DNA of 64,000 bases. Origin: Candidatus Doudnabacteria bacterium (lineage in GTDB: Bacteria; Patescibacteriota; Doudnabacteria; UBA920). The notes under the pieces were generated by a model. That model did not search any database. It saw only the letters and a program-made list of their open reading frames with translations, and had not been told where the DNA came from. Of the stretch, positions 1,764-41,161 are shown one piece after another (position 1 is the stretch's first letter; each line of letters starts with the position of its first letter). Both the position numbers and the translations under genes were made by a program. The stretch spans positions 4,401 to 68,400 of the forward strand of contig JAEUSF010000006.1 in assembly GCA_016788665.1 (NCBI GenBank). Direction: 5' to 3'.

Positions 1764-2768
1764 CTAATCACGCATTAGCCCTTTTGCTTTTTCCCAAAAT
1801 TCCGGATGGTTTTGCTTTTGCTTCATATAGTACCACCATTCTACTCCCCATAAATACTGAGGAGAAAGCCTTGTAGTTTCTGCAACGTCGAGTATTTTTT
1901 CAAACTTTTGCATACTCATGGTTTTAAACTGTTCTTCAACAGAAGTATTAAGTATGCCTTTAGTTGTCCATGGCTCTGCCTGTAGTTCAATTATAGCAAC
2001 TTGTTTACCCGGGTTCAAAAACCTCAAAAATCCCGCCTTAACTCTATAAACCCAAAACGGAATATAGTTAACCCAGTAACGGTTAAGCTTGTCGCTAAAT
2101 ACATATCTGTACAAAGTCGTACCAAATAAGTCGCCTCTCTTTCCGGAGCTTATCCACAGGGAAAGCTCTCCGCTGTCTGTAATTAACACCGGCCTTACGG
2201 GATCCAATTTTTTTACTAAAGCAATCTCACTGTCTAAAAGACCCGGATCTGGCTTCGGGCATTCGCCAAAGCTGGCTAGAAAAGGTTCGTTCTCAACCTG
2301 CCAAATTTCAACCGCCCGACTATTTTTATACCGCAAAACCACAGTTTCCACAAAAGACAATAAAGCATTTTTTAATTGCTGTTGATTTAAGTTTTTTATC
2401 CAAGCTGGGTCATGGCATTCCGGCCATCTGGGCAAACGCCTGCCTACAGACAAAACAATGCTGGTGTCTGTTTTTTCAGCTTCTGCAATCATATAATCCA
2501 AATCATCGAAATTAAAGTTCCCAGGTTCCGGCTCAACCTTATTCCAATAAGCGGAAAGCCGAACTTTTTTCACTCCCAAATCGCCCAGCATTTGTTTGTA
2601 GACTTCTTTCCAATCCAGTCCTAAATCCATAGCTTGAACCTGGCTAAAAGTTACCCCGTACTCAATTTGTTTGTGGGATCCTGAGTTTAAATACAGTAAA
2701 AATAATAAAACAAATAATACAAACAGCCCACTTAAAATTTTGTGATTTTTTATTAATTCAAAAAACAT
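1764..2768 (-). CDS. membrane-anchored glycoside hydrolase, clan GH-A (GH5/GH113-like TIM barrel)
   Basis: N-terminal TM helix; WNKVEPEPGNFNF and catalytic-type ENEP motif; family not assignable from sequence alone. Confidence 0.55.
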   Translation of the reverse strand: MFFELIKNHKILSGLFVLFVLLFLLYLNSGSHKQIEYGVTFSQVQAMDLGLDWKEVYKQMLGDLGVKKVRLSAYWNKVEPEPGNFNFDDLDYMIAEAEKTDTSIVLSVGRRLPRWPECHDPAWIKNLNQQQLKNALLSFVETVVLRYKNSRAVEIWQVENEPFLASFGECPKPDPGLLDSEIALVKKLDPVRPVLITDSGELSLWISSGKRGDLFGTTLYRYVFSDKLNRYWVNYIPFWVYRVKAGFLRFLNPGKQVAIIELQAEPWTTKGILNTSVEEQFKTMSMQKFEKILDVAETTRLSPQYLWGVEWWYYMKQKQNHPEFWEKAKGLMRD

Positions 2769-2891
2769 AAGTAAATGAAAGTGTTAAAATCAAAATGAAA
2801 AATAACAGTTTAAAATTTTAATTTTTTAATTCTGAATTGTCATTTTGATTTTTAATATTTAATCTTTACACTATAAAATCTAACTTATCTC

Positions 2892-3776
2892 CTAAACAAA
2901 CAAAATAATAGTGCCGCCGAAAATTAAACAAATAGCCGCAAATTTCTGCCAAATTACCTTTTTATTTAATTGCTCCTGCAGCAAATGCTGATGTGTATAT
3001 GACAAAATCAGAGCAAAGAGAAATAAGAATATGTACCTAAATCCCTGTAAACCGTTTACGACAGAAATTTTTGAAAAAACAAGTAAAAAACTTAAAAACA
3101 CAAAGCTTACCCCGCCTAATATTTGCTTTAAGAAAAAAAGCAAAGATGTCTGTTTCTTTTTTTCCACATTCTTTACTCCCAATATATTTCGGCGGGCAAC
3201 TGGTAAAGCTAAAAGCAAAACCACTGGCAGAGCAGCGCCCAACCTGTTCCACATAAGGTGGTTAAGCACATTGCCGCCGGTAGCAGAATATTGCCAGACA
3301 GCATAATAAATACTCCAAAGCAAAGCGCTTAAAACCTTAAGTAGAATGTGCCTGCTTGAAAACACCTCTTTTTTATAAGCTATTAAAAAAGCTCCAGGCA
3401 ACAGCAAGCAGAGCGCGGAAAACTCTTTTATACTTAACAAATTAGCGCCAGTGAAAACAGAAACCAACAAGTCGGTTAAAGGCACTACGGCAAAAATAAA
3501 CGGCACTACGCGGCTGACCTCGCCTTCTGACACAGCTTTAAAAAACAAATACATGGCGACCGAAAAAAGCACGCCGGAAAACACGTCTAACAATATTCGG
3601 CTAAAGCCCAACGGCTCATAGACCCAAGGCCAAGCGAGGAGCAAAATAAGCCCCATAACCACCGTAAAAAAAGTGTAAGTCAACGGCCTAATCTTTCTAG
3701 CCGAAAGCAGCACCTTGTCCATGACATCAACAACGGAGGAAATGAGATAGAAAAAAATTATTAATAAATATGTCAT
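2892..3776 (-). CDS. polytopic membrane protein (possibly DMT/EamA-like), function unknown
   Basis: 294-aa ORF with about 9 hydrophobic helices; no diagnostic motif. Confidence 0.4.
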   Translation of the reverse strand: MTYLLIIFFYLISSVVDVMDKVLLSARKIRPLTYTFFTVVMGLILLLAWPWVYEPLGFSRILLDVFSGVLFSVAMYLFFKAVSEGEVSRVVPFIFAVVPLTDLLVSVFTGANLLSIKEFSALCLLLPGAFLIAYKKEVFSSRHILLKVLSALLWSIYYAVWQYSATGGNVLNHLMWNRLGAALPVVLLLALPVARRNILGVKNVEKKKQTSLLFFLKQILGGVSFVFLSFLLVFSKISVVNGLQGFRYIFLFLFALILSYTHQHLLQEQLNKKVIWQKFAAICLIFGGTIILFV

Positions 3777-5699: not shown

Positions 5700-6230
5700 A
5701 TGCCTAAGTACAATATTGTTTCGCCCGAGAACCCCGACTGGTTTGTCAGGAGGGTAAACAGTCAACAGGCCGTTGTTAGGGCTAAGCTGCGGCTGGACGT
5801 GGAAACCGGAAATGTGGACTACGAGTTTCGCATGTACTACCTCTACCAAGGCAAGCTGTACGAAACTACGTTTGCCACCTGGGAGCAAAAGTCAGGTGGC
5901 CTGCCAGGTACGGCTACCACTTACTTTAACTTCCGCCAACCCAGCCACATCACACTGCCCGCCGCCGCAGAATTTGTTACCAACTTTTGGCAAGGCGTCC
6001 ATAACACACTATGGATGTACGACGCGGAAACTATTACCATCGACAACAAAGGACCGAACGGCTCCTACCGAGTACTCGAAGGCGAAGAGAAAAACCTTGT
6101 GCTTTCGAGCCTGCTAAGAGGGCTTGTGAACGAACTCCGACTGCTGCTGCACATGTCGGACAACGACATGCACAAGCATTGCTACCAATACGCAAAGCAG
6201 GTGGCCGAAAGCTGCCTTGCCAACCTCTAG
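5700..6230 (+). CDS. hypothetical protein, GC-rich foreign-looking gene (no signal peptide)
   Basis: 176-aa ORF with markedly higher GC than flanks, perfect SD and promoter; no recognisable domain. Confidence 0.6.
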   Translation: MPKYNIVSPENPDWFVRRVNSQQAVVRAKLRLDVETGNVDYEFRMYYLYQGKLYETTFATWEQKSGGLPGTATTYFNFRQPSHITLPAAAEFVTNFWQGVHNTLWMYDAETITIDNKGPNGSYRVLEGEEKNLVLSSLLRGLVNELRLLLHMSDNDMHKHCYQYAKQVAESCLANL

Positions 6231-6459
6231 CCTACACAAACAACGTCCGACTGTAAAAATTTTAAAACTTTAATCTGGTATTAATATAAACTATTTTTAA
6301 AAGAAAAAAGATTCAACGAAGACCCGCGTGCGCCAAATATATCTGCCGCGGGTCTTCTTCACACCTAGAGTTGAAAAAAAACCCTTAAAATGCTAAACTT
6401 TCAAAAGTTAACTACTGTATACAATTTGAAATTTGATATTTAAACTTTGATATTTCTAT

Positions 6460-8517: not shown

Positions 8518-8994
8518 ATGAACAAGAAAGTCGCAGCTTTGCTTTCAGGCGTTTTCGCATTAAGCATGGCTATGCCTGCCTTTGCAGCCGAAGGCATGTT
8601 AAGAACAAACAGTATGAGAGTAGCCTCCTCCTCTCCAACTACAGTAGACCAAACTCAAGCAATAGCCTGCGTAGGAGCCGCCGTTAGCACCCGAGAAGCA
8701 GCTTTAGCTTCAGCCTTCTCTACGCACAGCCAAAGTCTTCAAACAGCCTATACTAACAGAGCTTCCGCTTTAGCCGCCGCTTACAAAAAAACTACCACCA
8801 AAGAAGTTAAAGCAGACGTAAAAGCTGCTTGGTCTGCGTTTACCAAAGCAAAGAGAGAAGCTTCCTCTGCTTGGGTTAAGTCTAAGAACACAGCTTGGAC
8901 AAGCTTTAAAACCTCTGTTAGAGCCTGCAAGTCATCTGTAGCAAACTCTGTCTCTGACTCAGGCAATTCTTCTTCTGAAGCCCAAGGTCAATAA
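8518..8994 (+). CDS. secreted Ala/Ser/Thr-rich protein, unknown function
   Basis: Signal peptide MNKKVAALLSGVFALSMAMPAFAA; low-complexity mature region; followed by hairpin terminator 9008-9036. Confidence 0.6.
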   Translation: MNKKVAALLSGVFALSMAMPAFAAEGMLRTNSMRVASSSPTTVDQTQAIACVGAAVSTREAALASAFSTHSQSLQTAYTNRASALAAAYKKTTTKEVKADVKAAWSAFTKAKREASSAWVKSKNTAWTSFKTSVRACKSSVANSVSDSGNSSSEAQGQ

Positions 8995-9062
8995 AACTTT
9001 AAAAAACCCGTCACTTCAAAGTGACGGGTTTTTTGTAAGTAAAAAAAAGCTTCCTAATAGCT

Positions 9063-9428
9063 TTAGGAAGCAGAAGCGACTTTAACGCTTGGGTGAATGT
9101 TTTGCTGCTCAATTATCCACAAAAGAGAAGTAATAAGGGCATCCAAGCCTGTTACCGCACAGACCCCCCTCACATGTTCACCTACAGTTTCGTAAGCAAA
9201 ATACAGCGCTCTGGCTTGGTTTATGTCCAAAGCCAAAGCATCGGCGACATTCAGCCCCGGGTCCACACCTTCGCAGACTACCACTTGCACAGTATTCCAA
9301 AAAAAACTACTCCAGTCCCCTGTGTGATTGTGTGCAAATACACACTCTACTCCTCTAAAAGCGGAAAAAATCTCGCTCCACAATTTCTTCTCTGCGTCCA
9401 AACTCAGGCCCACAATCGCGATTTTCAT
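9063..9428 (-). CDS. hypothetical protein
   Basis: Start moved to MKIAIVG with GGAGGA SD 6 nt upstream; no confident family assignment. Confidence 0.45.
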   Translation of the reverse strand: MKIAIVGLSLDAEKKLWSEIFSAFRGVECVFAHNHTGDWSSFFWNTVQVVVCEGVDPGLNVADALALDINQARALYFAYETVGEHVRGVCAVTGLDALITSLLWIIEQQNIHPSVKVASAS

Positions 9429-11861: not shown

Positions 11862-12479
11862 CTATTCTAGGTTCCTAATAACCCCAACCACCTTCCCCTG
11901 CACCATCCACTCTTCTTTCGGATAAATGTCTTTATATTCCGGGTTTTCGGCTTTTAAGTACGCGCGGTTTTTAATTTGGATAAAACGTTTAACCGTTGCC
12001 TCGTCGTGTAACAGCGCTACTACTATGTCGTTATGCTTAGCTTCACGAGTAGGCCTAACAATAACCAAGTCACCCTCATAAATTCCCGCGTTTATCATAC
12101 TGTCACCTCTAACTTTAAGAAGAAAAACATCTCGCCGGCCTTTTACTAACGAAGAGGGTAAATTTATCCACTCTTCTATTTGTTGTTCTGCCATATGAGG
12201 ACTTCCGGCCTGAACCCTACCCATAAGCGGTACCGCTATAAGACCCTTTTCCAAACTTTCGCCTAGAGCGTTTAAAACTTCTATACCCCTAGCCTTACCA
12301 GAAATTTTTATATATTTGGCATCTTCCAAAGACTTAAGCAGCTTGGCAACAGCATTTTTGGAACTGACTTTTAAAAATTCGGCCATTTCTGAAATACTAG
12401 GAGGAAGATTGTGTTCGCGAACTTGTTTTACAATGAATTTTAAGAGCTCCTTTTGCCTAGAAGTAATTTCGTTTTCCAT
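11862..12479 (-). CDS. lexA: LexA repressor
   Basis: N-terminal wHTH, Ala-Gly cleavage region, S24 peptidase motifs VRGDSM (Ser) and KRF (Lys). Confidence 0.9.
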   Translation of the reverse strand: MENEITSRQKELLKFIVKQVREHNLPPSISEMAEFLKVSSKNAVAKLLKSLEDAKYIKISGKARGIEVLNALGESLEKGLIAVPLMGRVQAGSPHMAEQQIEEWINLPSSLVKGRRDVFLLKVRGDSMINAGIYEGDLVIVRPTREAKHNDIVVALLHDEATVKRFIQIKNRAYLKAENPEYKDIYPKEEWMVQGKVVGVIRNLE

Positions 12480-24849: not shown

Positions 24850-24899
24850 TAGTTTAAAATTTAAAGATCAAAGTTAAAAATTTAAAACTCTCAAAGGCA

Positions 24900-25337
24900 T
24901 TATGCGTCTTTGAGAGTTTTTAGTTTAGTAATATATTCAGGCGGCAACATACACCTTTCCGCACCCTCTATAAGTTCTTCTAAATACGAACTGCTTGGCC
25001 GCGTTTCCAAAAACCCGTCTCTTAAATATATAACGACACTTTGAGCTCCGTGCGTGGTGTGGTTTACTAAAATTTCTTTTCTTTGGTAGTACTGAGGCAC
25101 ACCCTCGTACTCATCTAAAAATTTTAAATCAGGTTCAGAAATTTCAAACACAGCACCCCAAACTCTTCCACCCTCTTGCTTAATTACATTTGCCGTACCT
25201 CCACCTCGAATTTTTGACTGCCCGTCAAAAACTAACTTGTAATTCTCCAAGAGTGCAGGGTATAAAAACTTGGGACTCATACCTAACCTTGCCCAAGTTT
25301 TTTCGTTTAACAAAACCCCATAACAGAATAACTTCAT
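24900..25337 (-). CDS. gamma-glutamylcyclotransferase-like (AIG2/GGCT fold) protein
   Basis: MKLFCYGVLLN..YPALLENYKLVF..GGGTANVI..GRVWGAVFEISEPDLKFLDEYEGV matches the GGCT/AIG2 family. Confidence 0.6.
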   Translation of the reverse strand: MKLFCYGVLLNEKTWARLGMSPKFLYPALLENYKLVFDGQSKIRGGGTANVIKQEGGRVWGAVFEISEPDLKFLDEYEGVPQYYQRKEILVNHTTHGAQSVVIYLRDGFLETRPSSSYLEELIEGAERCMLPPEYITKLKTLKDA

Positions 25338-25856: not shown

Positions 25857-26270
25857 CTACAGCAAGCAGTACCTGCCTTCTTCGTAGTGCTGTGGCGACA
25901 TGGTCAGAATTAGCTCCTTTACCACGCCGTCCTTACCCAGCATTCTAAATCGTGGGCCTTGGGCCTTTTTGTCGAGGACGACCGTAACCACCCTGGGTCT
26001 TACAGCAAAAGTCCTGAAGACTGGCTTTCTGTCCTTGTCAACAAACGCGAGCTGAAAATACAGCTCTGCTCCTTCGCGGATTATGTAGTCCCCGCAGCGC
26101 ACCTGCGACGGAGATAGCTTTGTTAAAACCGGCAGCTTAGCCGGAAAAAGGTCGAAGCCCTTTTCAAAGGCCTCAGAAATCACGGCATTGATCTTGCCCG
26201 TGACCTCGTCTATTTCCTGCTCCTGGCCAGCAAACGCAGCCAACACCAAGCACGCAATAAGCAACTGCAT
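25857..26270 (-). CDS. small secreted protein, GC-rich foreign-looking gene
   Basis: ATG at 26270 with AGGAGG 4 nt upstream; signal peptide MQLLIACLVLAAFAGQ; the 40-nt palindrome lies just upstream. Confidence 0.5.
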   Translation of the reverse strand: MQLLIACLVLAAFAGQEQEIDEVTGKINAVISEAFEKGFDLFPAKLPVLTKLSPSQVRCGDYIIREGAELYFQLAFVDKDRKPVFRTFAVRPRVVTVVLDKKAQGPRFRMLGKDGVVKELILTMSPQHYEEGRYCLL

Positions 26271-26338
26271 ACAGCCTCCTGGACAAAAGCCTACCACAAA
26301 CCTTACACCTAGGTCAAAAAAATTCAAATTCAAAAAAG

Positions 26339-26378
26339 GCAAAATACCTCAATACTAGCTAGTATTGAGGTATTTTGC
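26339..26378. repeat. 40-nt perfect palindrome GCAAAATACCTCAATACTAG|CTAGTATTGAGGTATTTTGC (copy 1)
   Basis: Read directly; the second copy at 35078-35117 matches at 39 of 40 positions. Confidence 0.9.
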
Positions 26379-26701
26379 TAATTTAAGAAACCTTTGTTAA
26401 AACGCTAAATTTATAACTACAAACCAAACTCAAAATAAATAATTATATAAATTCTTAGTTATTTAAAATATCCCGTCACATCTATTACTTTTACAGCAAT
26501 TTGTAAACAATCGAAGCCTATTTTTACTTTACCAATTTTATACAATACACTCATAACTTACAAATTCTACATAAATTTACTTTTATTATATAACTTTGGA
26601 TCGGAAGACTTTTAATAAAACAAGGTGCCACTTATTAATCAATATGTCATATTGAAAATTTCTGCTGAATGCTCTATACTGTATTGGATTTGCTTTATAC
26701 G

Positions 26702-26728
26702 TTGGGGTGTCGTCCCGACTAGCCGGGA
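26702..26728 (+). repeat. direct repeat copy L: tRNA-Gln 5' fragment (TTGGGGTGTCG) fused to the GTCCCGACTAGCCGGGA hairpin
   Basis: 11 nt identical to tRNA-Gln positions 27003-27013, followed by a near-palindrome; copy R at 27111-27145. Confidence 0.85.
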
Positions 26729-26744: not shown

Positions 26745-26983
26745 ATGTACACGACTTATATATTACAAAACCCTTTGGGAAAGCTTTATATAGGTTACTC
26801 CAGTAATCTTGATGTTCGGATTAGTTGGCATAATTCGGTAAATCAAAATTTACCAGAAATAAAGGTCCATGGAAGTTGTTTTATAGTAAAGAATTTCTGA
26901 CAAAATCTGAAGCTATCAAATACGAATATTATCTTAAATCTTTAAAAAGTCCGGAGTATATTAAAAAACTTATTGTGAAATAA
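26745..26983 (+). pseudogene. GIY-YIG nuclease gene with a 1-nt frameshift
   Basis: MYTTYILQNPLGKLYIGYSSNLDVRISWHNS then, after a single-base frame change at about 26833-26837, GKSKFTRNKGPWKLFYSKEFLTKSEAIKYEYYLKSLKSPEYIKKLIVK*; the joined product is a canonical about 80-aa GIY-YIG protein; AAGGAG SD at 26730. Confidence 0.75.
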
Positions 26984-27098
26984 TTTTTTCCTTTCACCTT
27001 CATTGGGGTGTCGCCAAGTGGTAAGGCAGGGGCCTTTGAAGCCCCCATTCGTAGGTTCGAATCCTACCACCCCAGCCAGGTGAAAGGAAAAAATTATT
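26979..27098. repeat. 20-bp perfect inverted repeat enclosing tRNA-Gln
   Basis: AATAATTTTTTCCTTTCACC (26979-26998) is the exact reverse complement of GGTGAAAGGAAAAAATTATT (27079-27098); the tRNA sits in the 80-nt loop. Confidence 0.9.
27004..27078 (+). tRNA. tRNA-Gln (anticodon UUG)
   Basis: Acceptor TGGGGTG/CACCCCA with U1-A72 as in bacterial tRNA-Gln, D arm GCC..GGC, anticodon stem GGGGC/GCCCC with loop CTTTGAA, T arm GTAGG-TTCGAAT-CCTAC, discriminator G, encoded CCA. Confidence 0.8.
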
Positions 27099-27110
27099 TT
27101 ATAATAGTAA

Positions 27111-27145
27111 GGTGTCGTCCCGACTAGTCGGGACCACCCCAGCCA
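27111..27145 (+). repeat. direct repeat copy R: GGTGTCG + perfect palindrome GTCCCGACTAGTCGGGAC + duplicated tRNA-Gln 3' end ACCACCCCAGCCA
   Basis: 13 nt identical to the tRNA 3' end (27066-27078); followed by terminator hairpin CACCAATAAACATTGGTG plus T8 (27154-27179). Confidence 0.85.
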
Positions 27146-27318
27146 AAAGAATTCACCAATAAACATTGGTGTTTTTTTTATGGTATAAATTATTTTGAAC
27201 CAAACTTTCAACACTTTCTAGGGGTGGACGTTTTTCTACATTTTTGCTAAAATACAAGGTCTCTTGTCAATGCTGCGGCAGTAGGAAGACTAGAGTGAAT
27301 GTAAAGGAGGTGAGAAGA

Positions 27319-28551: not shown

Positions 28552-29808
28552 TTATTGGTTGCCGTACAGCTTCGCTTCACACTCCACCTTACCGGTAGAA
28601 GCCGCGTTGGTTTGCGCGGTAAACTTAACGGTAAAGCCGGTGTAAGTCTTGTTGCTAAACGACACCGAAGGCGCTGCGTAGCCTGCAAACTCCTGCACGC
28701 CACACCCCGACAGCGAGTAGTTGGCTACCCCCGGGAGAAAAGGCGTGAGGAAATTGACCACGTAGGTGCAGGTGGATCCTGCGACTGCCGCGGTCGTACA
28801 GTTACTCTGCGGGTCGGCGGCGGTAACCATACGCACGCTACTAAGTTTGGTTAGAACCCCGGTAGCCGTGCGTGTGTTGATGATGCTGCAATCCTTACAG
28901 GGCGTAACGCCGTCAGGACTTGAACCATTCGAGATGGTTGTGTTGTAAGCGGGAGTTTCCCCATTAGGACCCGCCGTATCTTCCGCAACAACGCCGCCAG
29001 CTCCGTTTCCGGAAGTCTGGACTCCATCCACAACGTGGTCAAGCCCTCGCAAACTCAGCCCCCTACTTCCATTCGTAACCCTGAGGCTGCGAAATGTGAA
29101 ATAGGTTGAACCCATAACGTAAGCACCGTAACCACTTCCGGAGAGGTTTATGTAACCTCCCCACACGTTTACGCGCACAAAGTTAGAGTTCGAAGACGGA
29201 TTTGATGGCACCGTTACCAACCCGTAGGTGAACACTCCGGTCCACACAACCTCGTGTAGGTCAATATCGCCGGTATAGCAAGGAGCGCTACCACCCTCCA
29301 CCGTGCAGAGCCCAGCAGGGCTCCAATAGGTATTCTTAAGCACCAAGCCATCGGTGCGGTAGCGGGTAGTATTTCTGTTCGCGAATATCACGTTCCGGAG
29401 TTTCGCCCGGATCATGTTGTCGAGCACCACAGCATTCGCAGTGTTACTGTTTGAGGTAGTCAAGTCGAAGATGATATCCTCGAACTGCACCCCGTAGGAA
29501 AACATGCCCGGAAAGCCCATTGTGAAGATGGTGCTGCAACCATTGCAGCTGAGCCTTACCATCCCGCCGTTCTTGGGCCGAAACCGCACAACCACCTCTG
29601 AGGGAATGGTATTCCAAAGCCCGACCGAGATTTTACAATCGGACTCGAACAGAACCTCGCCTCCCCCAGACAAGACAATCAGGGGGTAATTCTGTTGCAG
29701 CGACAACGACGCAGTACCATCTGCGCATGACGCTGCGGTTACCACGTAGCTTGTGGCAGCCTGTGTACTGGCTACGAGAGCCAGAAACAGGACAAGAAGT
29801 CTAAACAT
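28552..29808 (-). CDS. secreted Cys-containing Gly/Ser/Thr/Asn-rich protein, possible right-handed beta-helix; GC-rich
   Basis: ATG at 29808 with AAGGAGGAG SD; signal peptide MFRLLVLFLALVASTQA; repetitive N/G/S/T-rich segments typical of beta-helix adhesin/lyase folds; fold not proven. Confidence 0.55.
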   Translation of the reverse strand: MFRLLVLFLALVASTQAATSYVVTAASCADGTASLSLQQNYPLIVLSGGGEVLFESDCKISVGLWNTIPSEVVVRFRPKNGGMVRLSCNGCSTIFTMGFPGMFSYGVQFEDIIFDLTTSNSNTANAVVLDNMIRAKLRNVIFANRNTTRYRTDGLVLKNTYWSPAGLCTVEGGSAPCYTGDIDLHEVVWTGVFTYGLVTVPSNPSSNSNFVRVNVWGGYINLSGSGYGAYVMGSTYFTFRSLRVTNGSRGLSLRGLDHVVDGVQTSGNGAGGVVAEDTAGPNGETPAYNTTISNGSSPDGVTPCKDCSIINTRTATGVLTKLSSVRMVTAADPQSNCTTAAVAGSTCTYVVNFLTPFLPGVANYSLSGCGVQEFAGYAAPSVSFSNKTYTGFTVKFTAQTNAASTGKVECEAKLYGNQ

Positions 29809-30770: not shown

Positions 30771-31112
30771 ATGCTTCGCGCCAAAATCGCATTGGCCGCA
30801 ATGGCGGCCATGTCACTTGGTCTCTCAGCTCCCGCTGTTGAGACAACCCCCGAGCTCATTCCCGAGCTCGGAAAACAACAGCCCAAGTTCGCACCCGCTA
30901 CGGTCGAAGACGATACGGTCTGCGCCGTCGCCTACCAAGACGGCCCCAACCAAATTTTGGCACGTGAAAAAGACGTGCCGAAAGGGGCGAAGATTGTGGC
31001 AGTGTACACGGCCACAAAAAAAGAGTGCGCGCGCCTGGGACGACTCCCAAGCGTCAAAGCGCAAAAACGGGGTACGGTCATTCACTTTACAGCCCCCGCC
31101 CAGCCAAAGTAG
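30771..31112 (+). CDS. small secreted protein, GC-rich
   Basis: AGGAGG 5 nt upstream; signal peptide MLRAKIALAAMAAMSLGLSAPA; own terminator 31112-31137. Confidence 0.55.
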   Translation: MLRAKIALAAMAAMSLGLSAPAVETTPELIPELGKQQPKFAPATVEDDTVCAVAYQDGPNQILAREKDVPKGAKIVAVYTATKKECARLGRLPSVKAQKRGTVIHFTAPAQPK

Positions 31113-31195: not shown

Positions 31196-31612
31196 ATGCT
31201 GAGAATTCTGATTGTTCTATATTTCCTTTCTTGGGGCACATTCGAAGCCGCTGTGTGGCACCAAGAAGAAGTGGCGTCCGTAAAAACCCAAGGCCAAACC
31301 AAAAGCAAAGTGATCTTCCCCAGAGTCACGCTCGGAGAAAACTACCAAAGCGAAGTCGCTGTTATAAACACTTCACAAGCTGTTGGCTCATGTAGCCTGT
31401 CGGAGTACAGCCCAGAGCTATCACGGGTAGTGCGGGTAAGCCACACGCCAGTCATTGGCCCAGGAAAGCAGTTTAGTCTTCGGCTTGTGCCTGTCAAAAG
31501 CTTACAAAAGGCGTACATTGTAATAATTGCCAATTGTAACTTTGCAAGCACGGGCGTGCTCACAACGACTAACCTTCAAAAAAAACTCGCCACTGTAGAA
31601 CTGGCCTACTAA
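31196..31612 (+). CDS. small secreted protein, GC-rich (paralog pair with 31696)
   Basis: TTGACC-17-TATAAT promoter at about 31127-31155, GAGGAGG SD, signal peptide; shares the FP..x..S..N....C motif with the next gene. Confidence 0.55.
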   Translation: MLRILIVLYFLSWGTFEAAVWHQEEVASVKTQGQTKSKVIFPRVTLGENYQSEVAVINTSQAVGSCSLSEYSPELSRVVRVSHTPVIGPGKQFSLRLVPVKSLQKAYIVIIANCNFASTGVLTTTNLQKKLATVELAY

Positions 31613-31695: not shown

Positions 31696-32124
31696 ATGAA
31701 GAAAGTAACAGGACTGTTTTGGGTCCTATTTTGGCTCTTTCTAATGACCAATGTTGTGGGTTTCTTGCGGAGCAACCTGTCTGAGTACACCGTGGTCAGA
31801 AAAAACTCAAAGAAAAAACGGGTTAAACTGGTATTTCCGAGCCTTAGCCAGGCGGAAAGCTACATGTCTACAATATGGCTCACCAACTACGGCAGAGCCA
31901 CCGCAAAGTGCCAAACGGACTACTACCTGGCCCACGGAAACGGGGAAAGATACTGGAGAGTGACCTCTACAATCTCCCCCCACTTCACCCACGTAGAGCC
32001 TCCTCCAGGCTATTCCGCCAAACAAACCGAGTACTCGGCCGTTTCTACGTGCGATGCCGGAGTTAGAGGCTACGCCATAGTCTACGGACCCAGTGGCGCC
32101 GTAGCTCTGTACGACGCCAAATAG
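31696..32124 (+). CDS. small secreted protein, GC-rich (paralog of 31196)
   Basis: AAGGAGAG SD, signal peptide MKKVTGLFWVLFWLFLMTNVVG; LVFPSLSQAESYMSTIWLTNYGRATAKC aligns with VIFPRVTLGENYQSEVAVINTSQAVGSC of the previous gene. Confidence 0.55.
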   Translation: MKKVTGLFWVLFWLFLMTNVVGFLRSNLSEYTVVRKNSKKKRVKLVFPSLSQAESYMSTIWLTNYGRATAKCQTDYYLAHGNGERYWRVTSTISPHFTHVEPPPGYSAKQTEYSAVSTCDAGVRGYAIVYGPSGAVALYDAK

Positions 32125-34182: not shown

Positions 34183-34315
34183 ATTAAACGAGTAATACAA
34201 ACCAAATAGCCGCTTACCAATCTTCCCTGGGAAGATTTTTTATTTAATTACTTCTTAAGTTTTTTTAGCTATGGTGTACTTAGTCAATAAAATTTTAAAC
34301 TAATTGCACAAACTT

Positions 34316-35035
34316 ATGCCACAAAATTACAAGAAAGACTTAAGTCCGCCCAAAAAAACACTAACCCAACAACAGCTCGAACTTATTCGTAATACCGTAG
34401 CCAAAGGTGCCACGCCTGACGAGCTAAAACTGTTTTTAATAGTAGCCAACAGAGCCGGTCTCGACCCTTTTACAAGACAAATACACTTTGTAAAGAGGGG
34501 TGGCAGAGCCACAGTACAGACTGGTATAGACGGCTATAGAGCCATAGCAGAAAGAAGCGGGAGCCTGGCGGGCATAGAAGACGCATTATACGACGCCGAA
34601 GACCAAGTCCACCCGAACAAAGCCACGGTGACAGTTTATAGAATGGTGAGTGGGCAAAGAGTTCCGTTTAGTGCTTCTGCCAGATGGGATGAATACGTGC
34701 CCCAAAGCGGACAAGACTTTATGTGGCGGAAAATGCCCTACTTTATGCTCGGTAAAGTTGCGGAAGCATTAGCTTTAAGAAAAGCATTCCCAAACGACTT
34801 AAGCGGACTTTACATTCACGAGGAAATGCAACGTGACGACAACAGTACGGAAAATGATTCAGAAGCGCTAATAAATCACAACAGCACCTCTCAAGAAAAA
34901 GAAAGTTCTTTAGACCCCACATTAACTGCCGCAAAAGATTACTCAAAAAAATTCTGGTCCCGCGCCGAACAACAAACACCTGCCTCAGAAAAACAAGCGC
35001 CTGTTTACCAAAAAGAAGCACTAGACGAGCCCTAA
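34316..35035 (+). CDS. recT: RecT/Bet-family phage single-strand annealing recombinase
   Basis: LTQQQLELIRNTVAKGATPDELKLFLIVANRAGLDPFTRQIHFVKRGGRATVQTGIDGYRAIAERSG is a textbook RecT (PF03837) core; track start is TTG, ATG at 34316. Confidence 0.8.
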   Translation: MPQNYKKDLSPPKKTLTQQQLELIRNTVAKGATPDELKLFLIVANRAGLDPFTRQIHFVKRGGRATVQTGIDGYRAIAERSGSLAGIEDALYDAEDQVHPNKATVTVYRMVSGQRVPFSASARWDEYVPQSGQDFMWRKMPYFMLGKVAEALALRKAFPNDLSGLYIHEEMQRDDNSTENDSEALINHNSTSQEKESSLDPTLTAAKDYSKKFWSRAEQQTPASEKQAPVYQKEALDEP

Positions 35036-35077: not shown

Positions 35078-35117
35078 GCAAAATACCTCAATACTAGCTA
35101 GTATTAAGGTATTTTGC
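35078..35117. repeat. 40-nt palindrome, copy 2 (39 of 40 palindromic)
   Basis: GCAAAATACCTCAATACTAGCTAGTATTAAGGTATTTTGC; the single mismatch is at 35106. Confidence 0.9.
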
Positions 35118-35177
35118 TAAATAACACGCAGTGACAGACTAATGGATACATGCTAAAATTCTCTGCAAGGAGGCCGC

Positions 35178-35555
35178 ATGCTTGTACTTCTAGCACTGGT
35201 CACGACGATTTTCGCCGCTGAACCCACGCAAAAAAATCTAGACGCGAGTCCAGGCTTCGTCTGGGGCTACATAGCCCGCGAAGTTAGTTGGATAACGCGG
35301 TCAGAAAGCGGGTACCTGGAACTCGTTCGTGCAGACTTGGTCTGCACCGACAAAACCGAGCGGCGCTGTGCTGCTCTTAGGCAGTACCTTATTCCACTGC
35401 CGAAGACCAACTACATGATATTTACGAAAAAGGACTTCCCACTGGGAAGTCCGAAACAACCCCGCGACGAAAACCCTGCGAGGTTAGTAAGTCCGGGGGT
35501 TGTAATCCCCCTGCTTCAAAAGCTCCAACAAGAGCCCGGGCATTCTAATCAATAG
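35178..35555 (+). CDS. small secreted protein, GC-rich
   Basis: AAGGAGG SD, signal peptide MLVLLALVTTIFAAEP; terminator hairpin about 35528-35578. Confidence 0.55.
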   Translation: MLVLLALVTTIFAAEPTQKNLDASPGFVWGYIAREVSWITRSESGYLELVRADLVCTDKTERRCAALRQYLIPLPKTNYMIFTKKDFPLGSPKQPRDENPARLVSPGVVIPLLQKLQQEPGHSNQ

Positions 35556-39896: not shown

Positions 39897-40328
39897 TTAA
39901 ACTCCCAAACTTCCAAGCTGTTCAGCGATACTATTACTTGCGGCTTCTGTTTGTTGCTTATAAGCCACCCATAGCTCTTCACTCCATATTTCTATACGAT
40001 TATACAAACCGGCCAAAACAGCCTTTTTATTTATTTTGGCAAATTCCTTTAAGTAACTTGGTAAAATAATTCTTCCTTGCTTATCTATCTCACAATCCAT
40101 TGCTCCAGCTAACATAAGACGACTAAAAGCTCTAGTATTAGCAGTAGCTATTGGTAAAGTTGAAAGCTTCTCAGCCAACTTTTTCCACTCTTCCATGGAA
40201 TACAAAAACAGAGAATTATCCAAGCCCCTGGTAACCACAACCTTGTTTTTTAATGCCGTTCTAAACTTCACGGGAATTAAGACCCTACCCTTTTCGTCTA
40301 TACTTGCCTGATATTCACCAATAAACAT
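39897..40328 (-). CDS. mraZ: transcriptional regulator MraZ
   Basis: Tandem MraZ/SpoVT-AbrB domains (MFIGEYQASIDEKGRVLIPVKFR.. and ..IDKQGRIILPSYLKEFA). Confidence 0.9.
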   Translation of the reverse strand: MFIGEYQASIDEKGRVLIPVKFRTALKNKVVVTRGLDNSLFLYSMEEWKKLAEKLSTLPIATANTRAFSRLMLAGAMDCEIDKQGRIILPSYLKEFAKINKKAVLAGLYNRIEIWSEELWVAYKQQTEAASNSIAEQLGSLGV

Positions 40329-40404: not shown

Positions 40405-40480
40405 CCACGAGTCTACCCACTTTTTCCCACTTTCAACCACTTTTTGACATCTAAGTGAATTATATACCACCCTAAACCAC
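40405..40480 (-). promoter_or_regulatory. array of GTGG(G) direct repeats at about 10-bp spacing upstream of mraZ (candidate MraZ operator)
   Basis: Plus-strand CCAC/CCCAC at 40405, 40416, 40426, 40437, 40467 and 40477, i.e. GTGG(G) on the coding strand. Confidence 0.55.
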
Positions 40481-40636: not shown

Positions 40637-41161
40637 TTATTTCAACACATTTTTTAAATTTTGCGAAATAACGTAAGCAGCCACACCAAAAGCCACACTA
40701 ACATTTAAGCTTTCTTTTTTCCCATACATAGGAATTTCCACAATTTTGTCGCATGATTTCAAAATTTTTTTATCCACACCCCCCACCTCTTCGCCCAAAA
40801 CCAGCGCAATTGGATCTGCACACTTAAACCTATTCAATTTAGTAGACATTTTAAAACCTGGGCCCAGGTTATTTTCCAAAGCAACAACCTTTAATTTTTT
40901 ATACTTTAATCTTAAATTTTTAATGGCTTTTATTGCCGAGTTATTATATTCCCACAAAACAAACTCCTCAGCTCCCAAAGCGGTTTTATTGATTTTTATT
41001 TTGTGCTTTACGTTATCTAACGTAGGAGTATAACCTGTTAAAAATATTTTTGACACCGCAAAAGCATCGGCTGTCCTAAAAATCGCTCCCACATTAAAGA
41101 GGGAGCGAATATTATGAGCTATGACAAAGAATTCGTTTTGTTGACGCTTATAAACTTTCAC
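40637..41161 (-). CDS. SpoU/TrmH-class RNA 2'-O-methyltransferase
   Basis: SPOUT knot motifs ..ALENNLGPG.., ..LVLGEEVGGV.., ..IPMYGKKESLNVSVAFGVAAY. Confidence 0.8.
   Translation of the reverse strand: MKVYKRQQNEFFVIAHNIRSLFNVGAIFRTADAFAVSKIFLTGYTPTLDNVKHKIKINKTALGAEEFVLWEYNNSAIKAIKNLRLKYKKLKVVALENNLGPGFKMSTKLNRFKCADPIALVLGEEVGGVDKKILKSCDKIVEIPMYGKKESLNVSVAFGVAAYVISQNLKNVLK

Follow-up and report, generated by a model that had tools for sequence, protein, structure and literature searches.

Two palindromes in a Candidatus Doudnabacteria genome belong to a conserved CPR family that is probably cognate to a long YerC protein

Two copies of a 40-nt palindrome, in a Candidatus Doudnabacteria MAG, are members of a palindrome family found across CPR groups. 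The probable partner of this family is a long form of YerC, a CPR-specific TrpR-fold protein. The copies lie in a 64 kb stretch of DNA (hereafter, the window), with a GC content of 40%. That they belong to the family is, in our judgement, close to certain. The family is constrained in sequence, positionally stable, distributed across CPR groups, and keeps its hairpin symmetry. In 7/7 lineages, the same kind of palindrome brackets the gene encoding YerC. Hence, the palindromes are most likely DNA sites for this protein. At roughly 70%, we also think it probable that long YerC is the family's cognate protein. For the full explanation, which includes a role for the copies at the two gene junctions of the window, we would put the odds only slightly above even. 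CPR bacteria, or Patescibacteria, have tiny genomes that encode few recognisable regulators and, to our knowledge, almost no cis-elements have been experimentally defined in these organisms.

Copy 1 (window positions 26339-26378) is a perfect 20+20 palindrome with arms GCAAAATACCTCAATACTAG and CTAGTATTGAGGTATTTTGC. Each arm is made of two 8-nt repeats (AATACCTC, AATACTAG). Copy 2 (35078-35117) has A in place of G at 35106, and is identical to copy 1 at 39/40 positions. Because of this one substitution, copy 2 is an imperfect palindrome, with 19/20 pairs. Hence, while the palindromic repeat is real, it is not exact, as had been claimed. With 3 more shared bases on the right-hand side (TAA), the block common to both copies reaches 43 nt, at 98% identity. 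The 28-nt core conserved in the wider family corresponds to 26345-26372 in copy 1 and 35084-35111 in copy 2. The original prediction was right that such a repeat is unlikely to occur by chance; when the window was shuffled, preserving dinucleotides, 0/100 shuffles yielded any match at 3 or fewer mismatches. The window itself contains no third copy, or half-site, of the palindrome. Both copies form a hairpin, of 18-20 bp, on both strands. For copy 1, the folding energy is -27.6 kcal/mol on either strand (z of about -7). Equivalent values for copy 2 are -21.5 kcal/mol on the plus strand and -26.1 kcal/mol on the minus strand. The weaker fold arises because the mismatch at 35106 reads as A-C in the plus strand hairpin but as G-U in the minus strand hairpin. 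Across both copies, z-scores are between -5 and -7. Only two tRNAs pass the Rfam gathering score, and the palindrome itself returns only chance miRNA-like matches.

The original prediction also placed each copy next to a GC-rich gene for a secreted protein, and we find the same arrangement. Both genes have a GC content of 52.4%, compared to 40% for the window, and both products have a signal-peptide-like N-terminus. A minus strand gene (25857-26270), encoding a 137-aa protein with no Pfam match, has its ATG (26270) 68 nt downstream of copy 1. A T6 run (26332-26337) lies directly 3' of copy 1, on the minus strand only, and resembles the tail of a terminator; no gene is located upstream on that strand within the window. 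A possible promoter for the 137-aa gene (TTGACC, 18 nt, TAGGCT; 26288-26317, minus strand), read from the sequence and below our scan threshold, has its first hexamer 21 nt from copy 1. Copy 2 starts 42 nt after the stop codon (35035) of recT (34304-35035, plus strand; Pfam RecT, E=1.8e-30). A promoter-like element (GTGACA, 17 nt, TAAAAT, with an extended TG; 35131-35159, plus strand; 10/12 matches) begins 13 nt past the palindrome. The ATG of the second GC-rich gene (35178-35555, plus strand), encoding a 125-aa protein, is 60 nt from copy 2. The two secreted proteins are not homologous, so we rejected the idea that their genes are paralogues that inherited a common upstream element. A domain search of the region between 21.7 and 36.6 kb identified no integrase, recombinase or classical repressor, and the only regulator close to the palindromes is an ECF sigma factor.

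In a scan for intrinsic terminators, both copies passed on the minus strand only. On the strand encoding recT, copy 2 has no T-tract and TAAATAACAC comes directly after the stem. Terminators elsewhere in the window are likewise long, perfectly palindromic and framed by A/T runs, but each has a sequence of its own. The two GC-rich genes are part of a group of small genes (48-58% GC) that encode proteins with signal-peptide-like N-termini and no Pfam domains. They cluster between 25857 and 35555 (25857-26270, 28552-29808, 30771-31112, 31196-31612, 31696-32124, and 35178-35555), and at least three (25857-26270, 28552-29808, and 35178-35555) have counterparts at the same place in the relative described below. 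Inside the 125-aa ORF, on the minus strand, is a terminator-like hairpin with a T5 tail (35432-35452). This is 116 nt past the stop codon of a convergent adenosine deaminase gene. Hence, the deaminase transcript would overlap the small gene in the antisense direction.

Searching one genome per species, the exact 40-mer had a single match, in a MAG labelled Saccharibacteria. This is a syntenic relative, and we obtained a 20 kb locus from it (L004) by means of metallophosphoesterase homologues; searches with RecT homologues gave loci where synteny was not kept. L004 is collinear with positions 20054-42807 of the window, at 68-78% DNA identity. The L004 equivalent of copy 1 (6207-6246) is 40/40 identical, while its flanks are about 72% identical. 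Within the 22.7 kb of synteny, only two exact matches are longer than the 41-nt run at this site: 55 nt upstream of mraZ and 49 nt within the 40637-41161 ORF. The 55-nt block (40416-40470) contains CCCAC/CCAC repeats with 5-nt spacers and is probably the MraZ operator and dcw cluster promoter (mraZ is at 39897-40328, minus strand). At the second site, L004 has a different perfect palindrome, with arms ACATTACTCCAATACTAC and GTAGTATTGGAGTAATGT, that is clearly homologous to copy 2. Its core (12417-12444), with 4 flanking bases on each side, shows compensatory double changes. An ordinary terminator in the window (24884-24920) has also diverged from L004 with compensatory changes. The T6 tail beside copy 1, both GC-rich genes, and both promoter-like elements, including the two hexamers and spacing at 26288-26317, are kept in L004. 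In the 125-aa gene, there is a signal-peptide indel of 9 nt (three codons). Among 5.8 billion proteins, the only homologue of the 137-aa protein is encoded by the syntenic L004 gene (70% identity).

These comparisons bear on the proposal that the palindromes sit at the boundary of foreign-looking genes and mark cassette ends or att sites. The two GC-rich genes occupy the same places in L004 and, therefore, are not recent insertions. Both are also outside the interval between the palindromes. The interval is itself collinear in L004, apart from a local tRNA rearrangement, and no integrase or recombinase is encoded nearby. Elsewhere, the palindrome adjoins housekeeping genes (murC/murD, corA/cysK, comEC, uvrC, proS, and parA/parB). 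We find no support for the proposal.

The tRNA rearrangement has a structure of its own. Beside site 1, L004 has a minus strand tRNA-Gln, transcribed towards the palindrome, with a terminator hairpin of its own. Relative to L004, the corresponding module of the window is inverted and enlarged. Here, a promoter-like site (26652-26680) is followed by a leader and then by the initial 11 nt of tRNA-Gln (26702-26712). This fragment continues into a hairpin, TCCCGACTAGCCGGGA, after which are a ribosome binding site and a frameshifted GIY-YIG ORF (26746-26983). An intact tRNA-Gln (27004-27078) follows, bracketed by a 29-nt inverted repeat (26971-26999 and 27078-27106). Finally, positions 27112-27146 comprise GGTGTCGTCCCGACTAGTCGGGA and the tRNA 3' acceptor strand CCACCCCAGCCA. 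The segment between 26652 and 27171, all of which is inverted compared to the plain tRNA-Gln of L004, resembles a 39-nt tRNA mini-helix that is interrupted by a cassette of GIY-YIG and tRNA. We considered, and rejected, the GIY-YIG remnant as a cognate nuclease for the palindrome; neither L004 nor any other locus contains it.

To describe the wider family, we used a degenerate pattern, TACNNCAATACTANNTAGTATTGNNGTA, that has 22 fixed bases and fits the three versions found in the window and L004. This matched 31 loci in JGI metagenomes and 0 viral contigs. Note that the exact 22-mer core had no match in JGI metagenomes or IMG/VR, and that no palindrome match was found in plasmid, phage, and viral collections. 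The commonest form of the palindrome is acaaTACTTCAATACTACGTAGTATTGAAGTAttgt. The family core is CAATACTA-NN-TAGTATTG, with covarying flanks, and occurs at many unrelated loci from different CPR groups; one carrier contig is from Candidatus Woesebacteria GW2011_GWB1_39_10. Two others have a GC content of 48% and 57%, and the palindrome is an AT-rich island in each. Since the flanks differ among loci, the matches represent many independent sites. A relaxed scan revealed second and third copies in several loci, and some have 2-3 copies per 10-20 kb. An alignment of 29 distinct copies has 15 core columns that never vary, and at the two free core pairs 58/58 cells are complementary, with 10 double changes. 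This gives a covariation score of 0.262, compared to 0.110 in shuffles, and 0/500 shuffles reach the observed score. As in copy 1, each arm is composed of two 8-nt repeats (AATACTTC, AATACTAC), so the palindrome has four ATACT motifs. The centre (CG, TA, GC, AG, CA or GG) tends to be uniform within a genome. In one case, named organism D, a TATA centre and TTTGA flank are homogenised among the copies. In the literature library searched, we found no paper with the sequence, or linking TrpR or YerC proteins to CPR palindromes.

Most family members are found just after the 3' end of a gene (within 8-160 nt). Approximately 16 separate co-directional genes and 3-4 separate convergent genes; divergent junctions are almost never occupied. 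At some junctions, including murC-murD and the two halves of comEC, just 8-17 nt are left on each side. A promoter would not fit in so little space, making strong termination at these places doubtful. By eye, a T-tract in the direction of the upstream gene is missing from at least 12 of about 20 sites. Four good copies are inside ORFs (L031 1133-1160, L013 8449-8476, L027 1490-1517, and L033 3313-3340), encoding PurB, two glycosyltransferases, and a membrane protein. The reading frame is always the same, and the translation is TSIL(R/Y/P)SIEV. A fifth such copy, inside comEC, is degenerate (4 core mismatches). The palindrome-encoded stretch of PurB aligns, without gaps, to a helix in solved PurB structures. 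Hence, the palindrome replaces sequence rather than being inserted. Sites at corA-cysK, comEC, and parA-parB are positionally conserved in two organisms, for which YerC identity is about 82%.

The link to YerC comes from genes that are bracketed by the palindrome. In two organisms, a pair of palindromes, about 610 nt apart, flanks a gene for a 181-183 aa protein between parA and parB. The protein matches Pfam Trp_repressor (E=2.7e-14) and NCBIfam YerC/YecD. We built an AlphaFold model from 18 homologues, for which pLDDT is about 90 or above over residues 10-100. The predicted N-terminal region, of about 100 aa, matches crystal structures of TrpR/HisR (TM 0.75-0.83). The C-terminal 80 residues are modelled with low confidence as helical; they are basic and have no catalytic motif. 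A full HMMER scan detected 174 representative clusters (50% identity) at E<1e-10. Long YerC proteins are 175-190 aa in size and the named members are from Parcubacteria and Moranbacteria MAGs.

Each of the seven lineages examined has its own lineage's palindrome on both sides of yerC. The window-type palindrome is present in L008, L024/L039, and L033, with a close variant in L047, while other palindrome sequences flank the gene in L045, L046, and L048/L049. For L033 (YerC identity 43%), the same palindrome overlaps the 3' end of the gene, and the second copy is upstream beyond a decayed IS1595-like transposase. The close variant is on both sides in L047 (YerC 43%). An imperfect version with the same ATACT periodicity is on both sides in L049/L050 (YerC 45%), and only two copies occur in 20 kb. 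The palindromes TACTACTATTATACCAATAATAGTAGTA, GTTCCACGGTTCAAACCGTGGAAC, and AACACTTCTGCGCTCTTGAGCGCAGAAGTGTT are on both sides of the gene in L045 (YerC 49%), L046 (YerC 39%), and L048 (YerC 34%), respectively. In 20 kb yerC loci, the only two copies are those that flank yerC. The downstream copy is 3-16 nt past the yerC stop codon and, in four lineages, the upstream copy is 11-28 nt before the ATG. As a control, we looked for a 14-mer common to both 130-nt flanks of each gene in the examined loci. This was found for 3/3 testable yerC genes and 4/268 others (Fisher p = 1e-5). One of these four is a weak match to RAYT (REP-associated tyrosine transposase) with a different palindrome of its own. 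Hence, the bracketed-gene layout exists in these genomes for a known kind of protein-repeat pair. By eye, there are no convincing promoter hexamers for yerC inside the palindrome.

Three of these loci have additional features. In L033, frameshifted remnants of an IS1595-like transposase (8596-9181, identified by eye) are between the YerC-like gene and the upstream palindrome. The L048 locus is a 706-nt NCBI contig (1-706), carrying only the long YerC gene, with identical 55-nt ends that each consist of the palindrome plus 30 nt. This circular assembly path could be a 651-bp circle, a tandem unit, or an identical palindrome and flank on both sides of the gene. The weak RAYT match, in L039 (2449-3180), is a 219-aa protein (2492-3151) that matches NF047646 with E=1e-6, below the cutoff. 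Its gene is bracketed on both sides by CCCTAGAGCcgaGCTCTAGGG, which is distinct from the YerC palindrome. This looks, from its sequence, like a REP-RAYT-like pair in a CPR genome.

A rival explanation for the window copies is that they are plain intrinsic bidirectional terminators, ending recT at copy 2 and a leftward transcript at copy 1, with their shared sequence left by an old duplication or gene conversion. The strong hairpin of copy 1, the minus strand scan results, and the resemblance to other terminators in the window all fit this explanation. So too does the position of most family members, 8-160 nt past a gene, the preservation of symmetry by compensatory changes, and the location of the L004 copy 1, downstream of tRNA-Gln with T6 on both sides. 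However, a hairpin needs no fixed sequence, whereas this core does not vary between unrelated loci or CPR groups. Furthermore, the recT strand lacks a T-tract at copy 2, in both the window and L004, as do most family sites counted above in the direction of the upstream gene. Strong terminators at the tight co-directional junctions (murC-murD and split comEC) would silence the downstream gene, and other copies are inside the PurB and glycosyltransferase ORFs. In L004, a terminator hairpin belonging to the tRNA is already present. The original proposal, that the palindrome is a strong bidirectional terminator, holds only in part: the stem is stable, but both copies resemble terminators on the minus strand alone. 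We consider plain termination unlikely to be the explanation for the two copies.

Two further explanations involve mobility. If the palindrome were a selfish repeat, similar to REP or MITE elements, then palindrome-flanked yerC would be the analogue of REP-RAYT-REP, and copies would have spread by copying. The layout in L039, albeit with a different palindrome, is the same. Several near-identical copies per genome, the homogenised centres and flanks, the presence of some copies inside ORFs, and the 706-nt yerC contig with its circular assembly path, are also consistent with spreading. Conversely, the YerC-like protein, a TrpR fold with a helical basic tail, lacks a catalytic motif. Sites are positionally stable between genomes that have diverged by approximately 30%, the PurB copy replaces sequence without insertion or deletion, and we saw no duplicated target sites. 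The copies are few (2 per 20-64 kb) and the plasmid, phage, and viral collections have no match. A selfish repeat is thus an improbable account of the family. Still less credible is a tyrosine recombinase core site (dif-, pdif- or att-like), at the ends of a mobile or invertible 8.7 kb segment. One reading of the 28-nt core is a pair of 11-nt inverted arms flanking a 6-nt centre (TANNTA), in which the middle two bases vary between genomes. The breakpoint of the inverted tRNA-Gln module, with its extra genes, starts 12 nt from copy 1, and a gene bracketed by two sites recalls pdif modules. Nevertheless, the region from 21.7 to 36.6 kb encodes no recombinase domains, L004 is otherwise collinear with the interval, and the supposedly foreign genes are outside the interval. 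Since there are several copies per genome, some of them in ORFs, the palindrome is not dif. The two sites of L004 differ in their centres and arms (GC versus CG) and so could not recombine together. There are no attC R'/R'' GTTRRRY motifs. We regard a recombinase site as very improbable.

In the reading that we prefer, where the family members are YerC sites, a YerC-like dimer, or tandem dimers, would bind the double-stranded palindrome. The two ATACT motifs in each arm are 8 bp apart, and are reminiscent of the GNACT half-sites of TrpR. At its own gene, YerC may autoregulate; elsewhere, it would occupy sites between genes. In the window, each site has an upstream transcription unit on one side and a promoter-like element on the other, and is centred about 70 nt upstream of the inferred start. 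Occupancy by YerC, and/or the 18-20 bp RNA hairpin, might insulate or modulate the promoters of the secreted-protein genes. Cognate sites can, in principle, form hairpins as well as bind protein. Because of its T6 tail, copy 1 may additionally be an intrinsic terminator on the minus strand. The family as a whole may be purely regulatory or architectural, or in part selfish, as REP elements are.

Several observations weigh against this. There is no yerC homologue in the 64 kb window, or the 20 kb of L004, by tblastn at E values up to 10. Note that the dispersed copies and yerC loci were placed in the same genomes by inference from shared metagenomes. The spacing between inverted ATACT motifs is 4, 12 or 20 bp, rather than the 8 bp of E. 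coli TrpR. Symmetric covariation is unexpected for independent dimer half-sites; either a hairpin constraint or palindrome-correcting mutation must also act. Copies between convergent genes, or inside ORFs, cannot serve as classical operators. Finally, genes neighbouring family sites form no coherent regulon. For this last reason, the suggestion that the palindrome is a shared operator can be accepted only in part. Of the ideas originally put forward it is the closest, since the sequence is conserved far beyond what a hairpin needs, and a palindrome of this kind flanks a TrpR-family gene in each lineage examined.

Given that an HUH transposase is absent, and that the half-site geometry of TrpR is not observed, the family belongs with neither REP/RAYT elements nor TrpR sites. 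Tentatively, and with the balance of our expectation against it, we suggest an undescribed two-part system in CPR bacteria. This would pair long YerC, with its TrpR fold and C-terminal extension, with a lineage-specific, hairpin-forming palindrome that flanks yerC, is dispersed among gene junctions and has even replaced coding sequence at constant length. The system would serve either for genome-wide, protein-dependent punctuation or insulation, or as an analogue of REP-RAYT without the HUH enzyme. If so, the copies in the window would be ordinary working members. A palindrome found across CPR groups, matched to one widespread DNA-binding protein, would be a protein-site pair open to direct test, and the palindrome would mark gene-junction signals in CPR genomes. 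For annotation, the lesson is that a perfect palindrome of this kind should not be assumed to be a terminator or att site.

The family shares features with several known systems. TrpR-family factors bind 20-bp palindromes and often autoregulate; the operator rule for TrpR is GNACT-8-AGTNC, with an 8-bp spacer between half-sites (PMC9413887). Similar to operators for TrpR and HisR (YerC), the CPR palindrome is beside, and upstream of, a gene for a TrpR-fold protein, which suggests autoregulation. It also has NTACT units at 8 bp, and a lineage-specific consensus. Unlike these systems, long YerC is twice the length, with a C-terminal extension, and the site is 28-48 bp, found on both sides of the gene, and dispersed at gene 3' ends and inside ORFs. 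Half-site spacing also differs and there is no amino acid biosynthesis regulon. With REP and RAYT, the family has in common short extragenic hairpin palindromes, mostly after gene 3' ends, a cognate gene between two copies, and a sequence common to the copies in a genome. The differences are that the protein encoded between the copies is of the helix-turn-helix type rather than an HUH/Y1 enzyme, that copy density is much lower, that the core is kept across phylum-level groups, and that positions are kept between diverged genomes. Rho-independent bidirectional terminators also have a long, perfect, A/T-framed stem, in intergenic DNA after a gene, and copy 1 has T6 on the minus strand. In contrast, the CPR family conserves sequence, mostly lacks a U-tract, and is also present in ORFs or in operon junctions too tight for a promoter. 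As for Tus-Ter, RTP-Ter, and ParB-parS, the gene for a DNA-binding protein adjoins its own site, further copies of which are scattered and sometimes intragenic. Indeed, long yerC is between parA and parB in two organisms. However, Ter sites are asymmetric, and parS (a TGTTNCACGTGAAACA-like 16-mer) differs from the palindrome in sequence. No examined locus has a canonical parS at 2 or fewer mismatches. The palindrome is best filed as a variant akin to a TrpR-family site, or to a REP-like repeat with a cognate gene.
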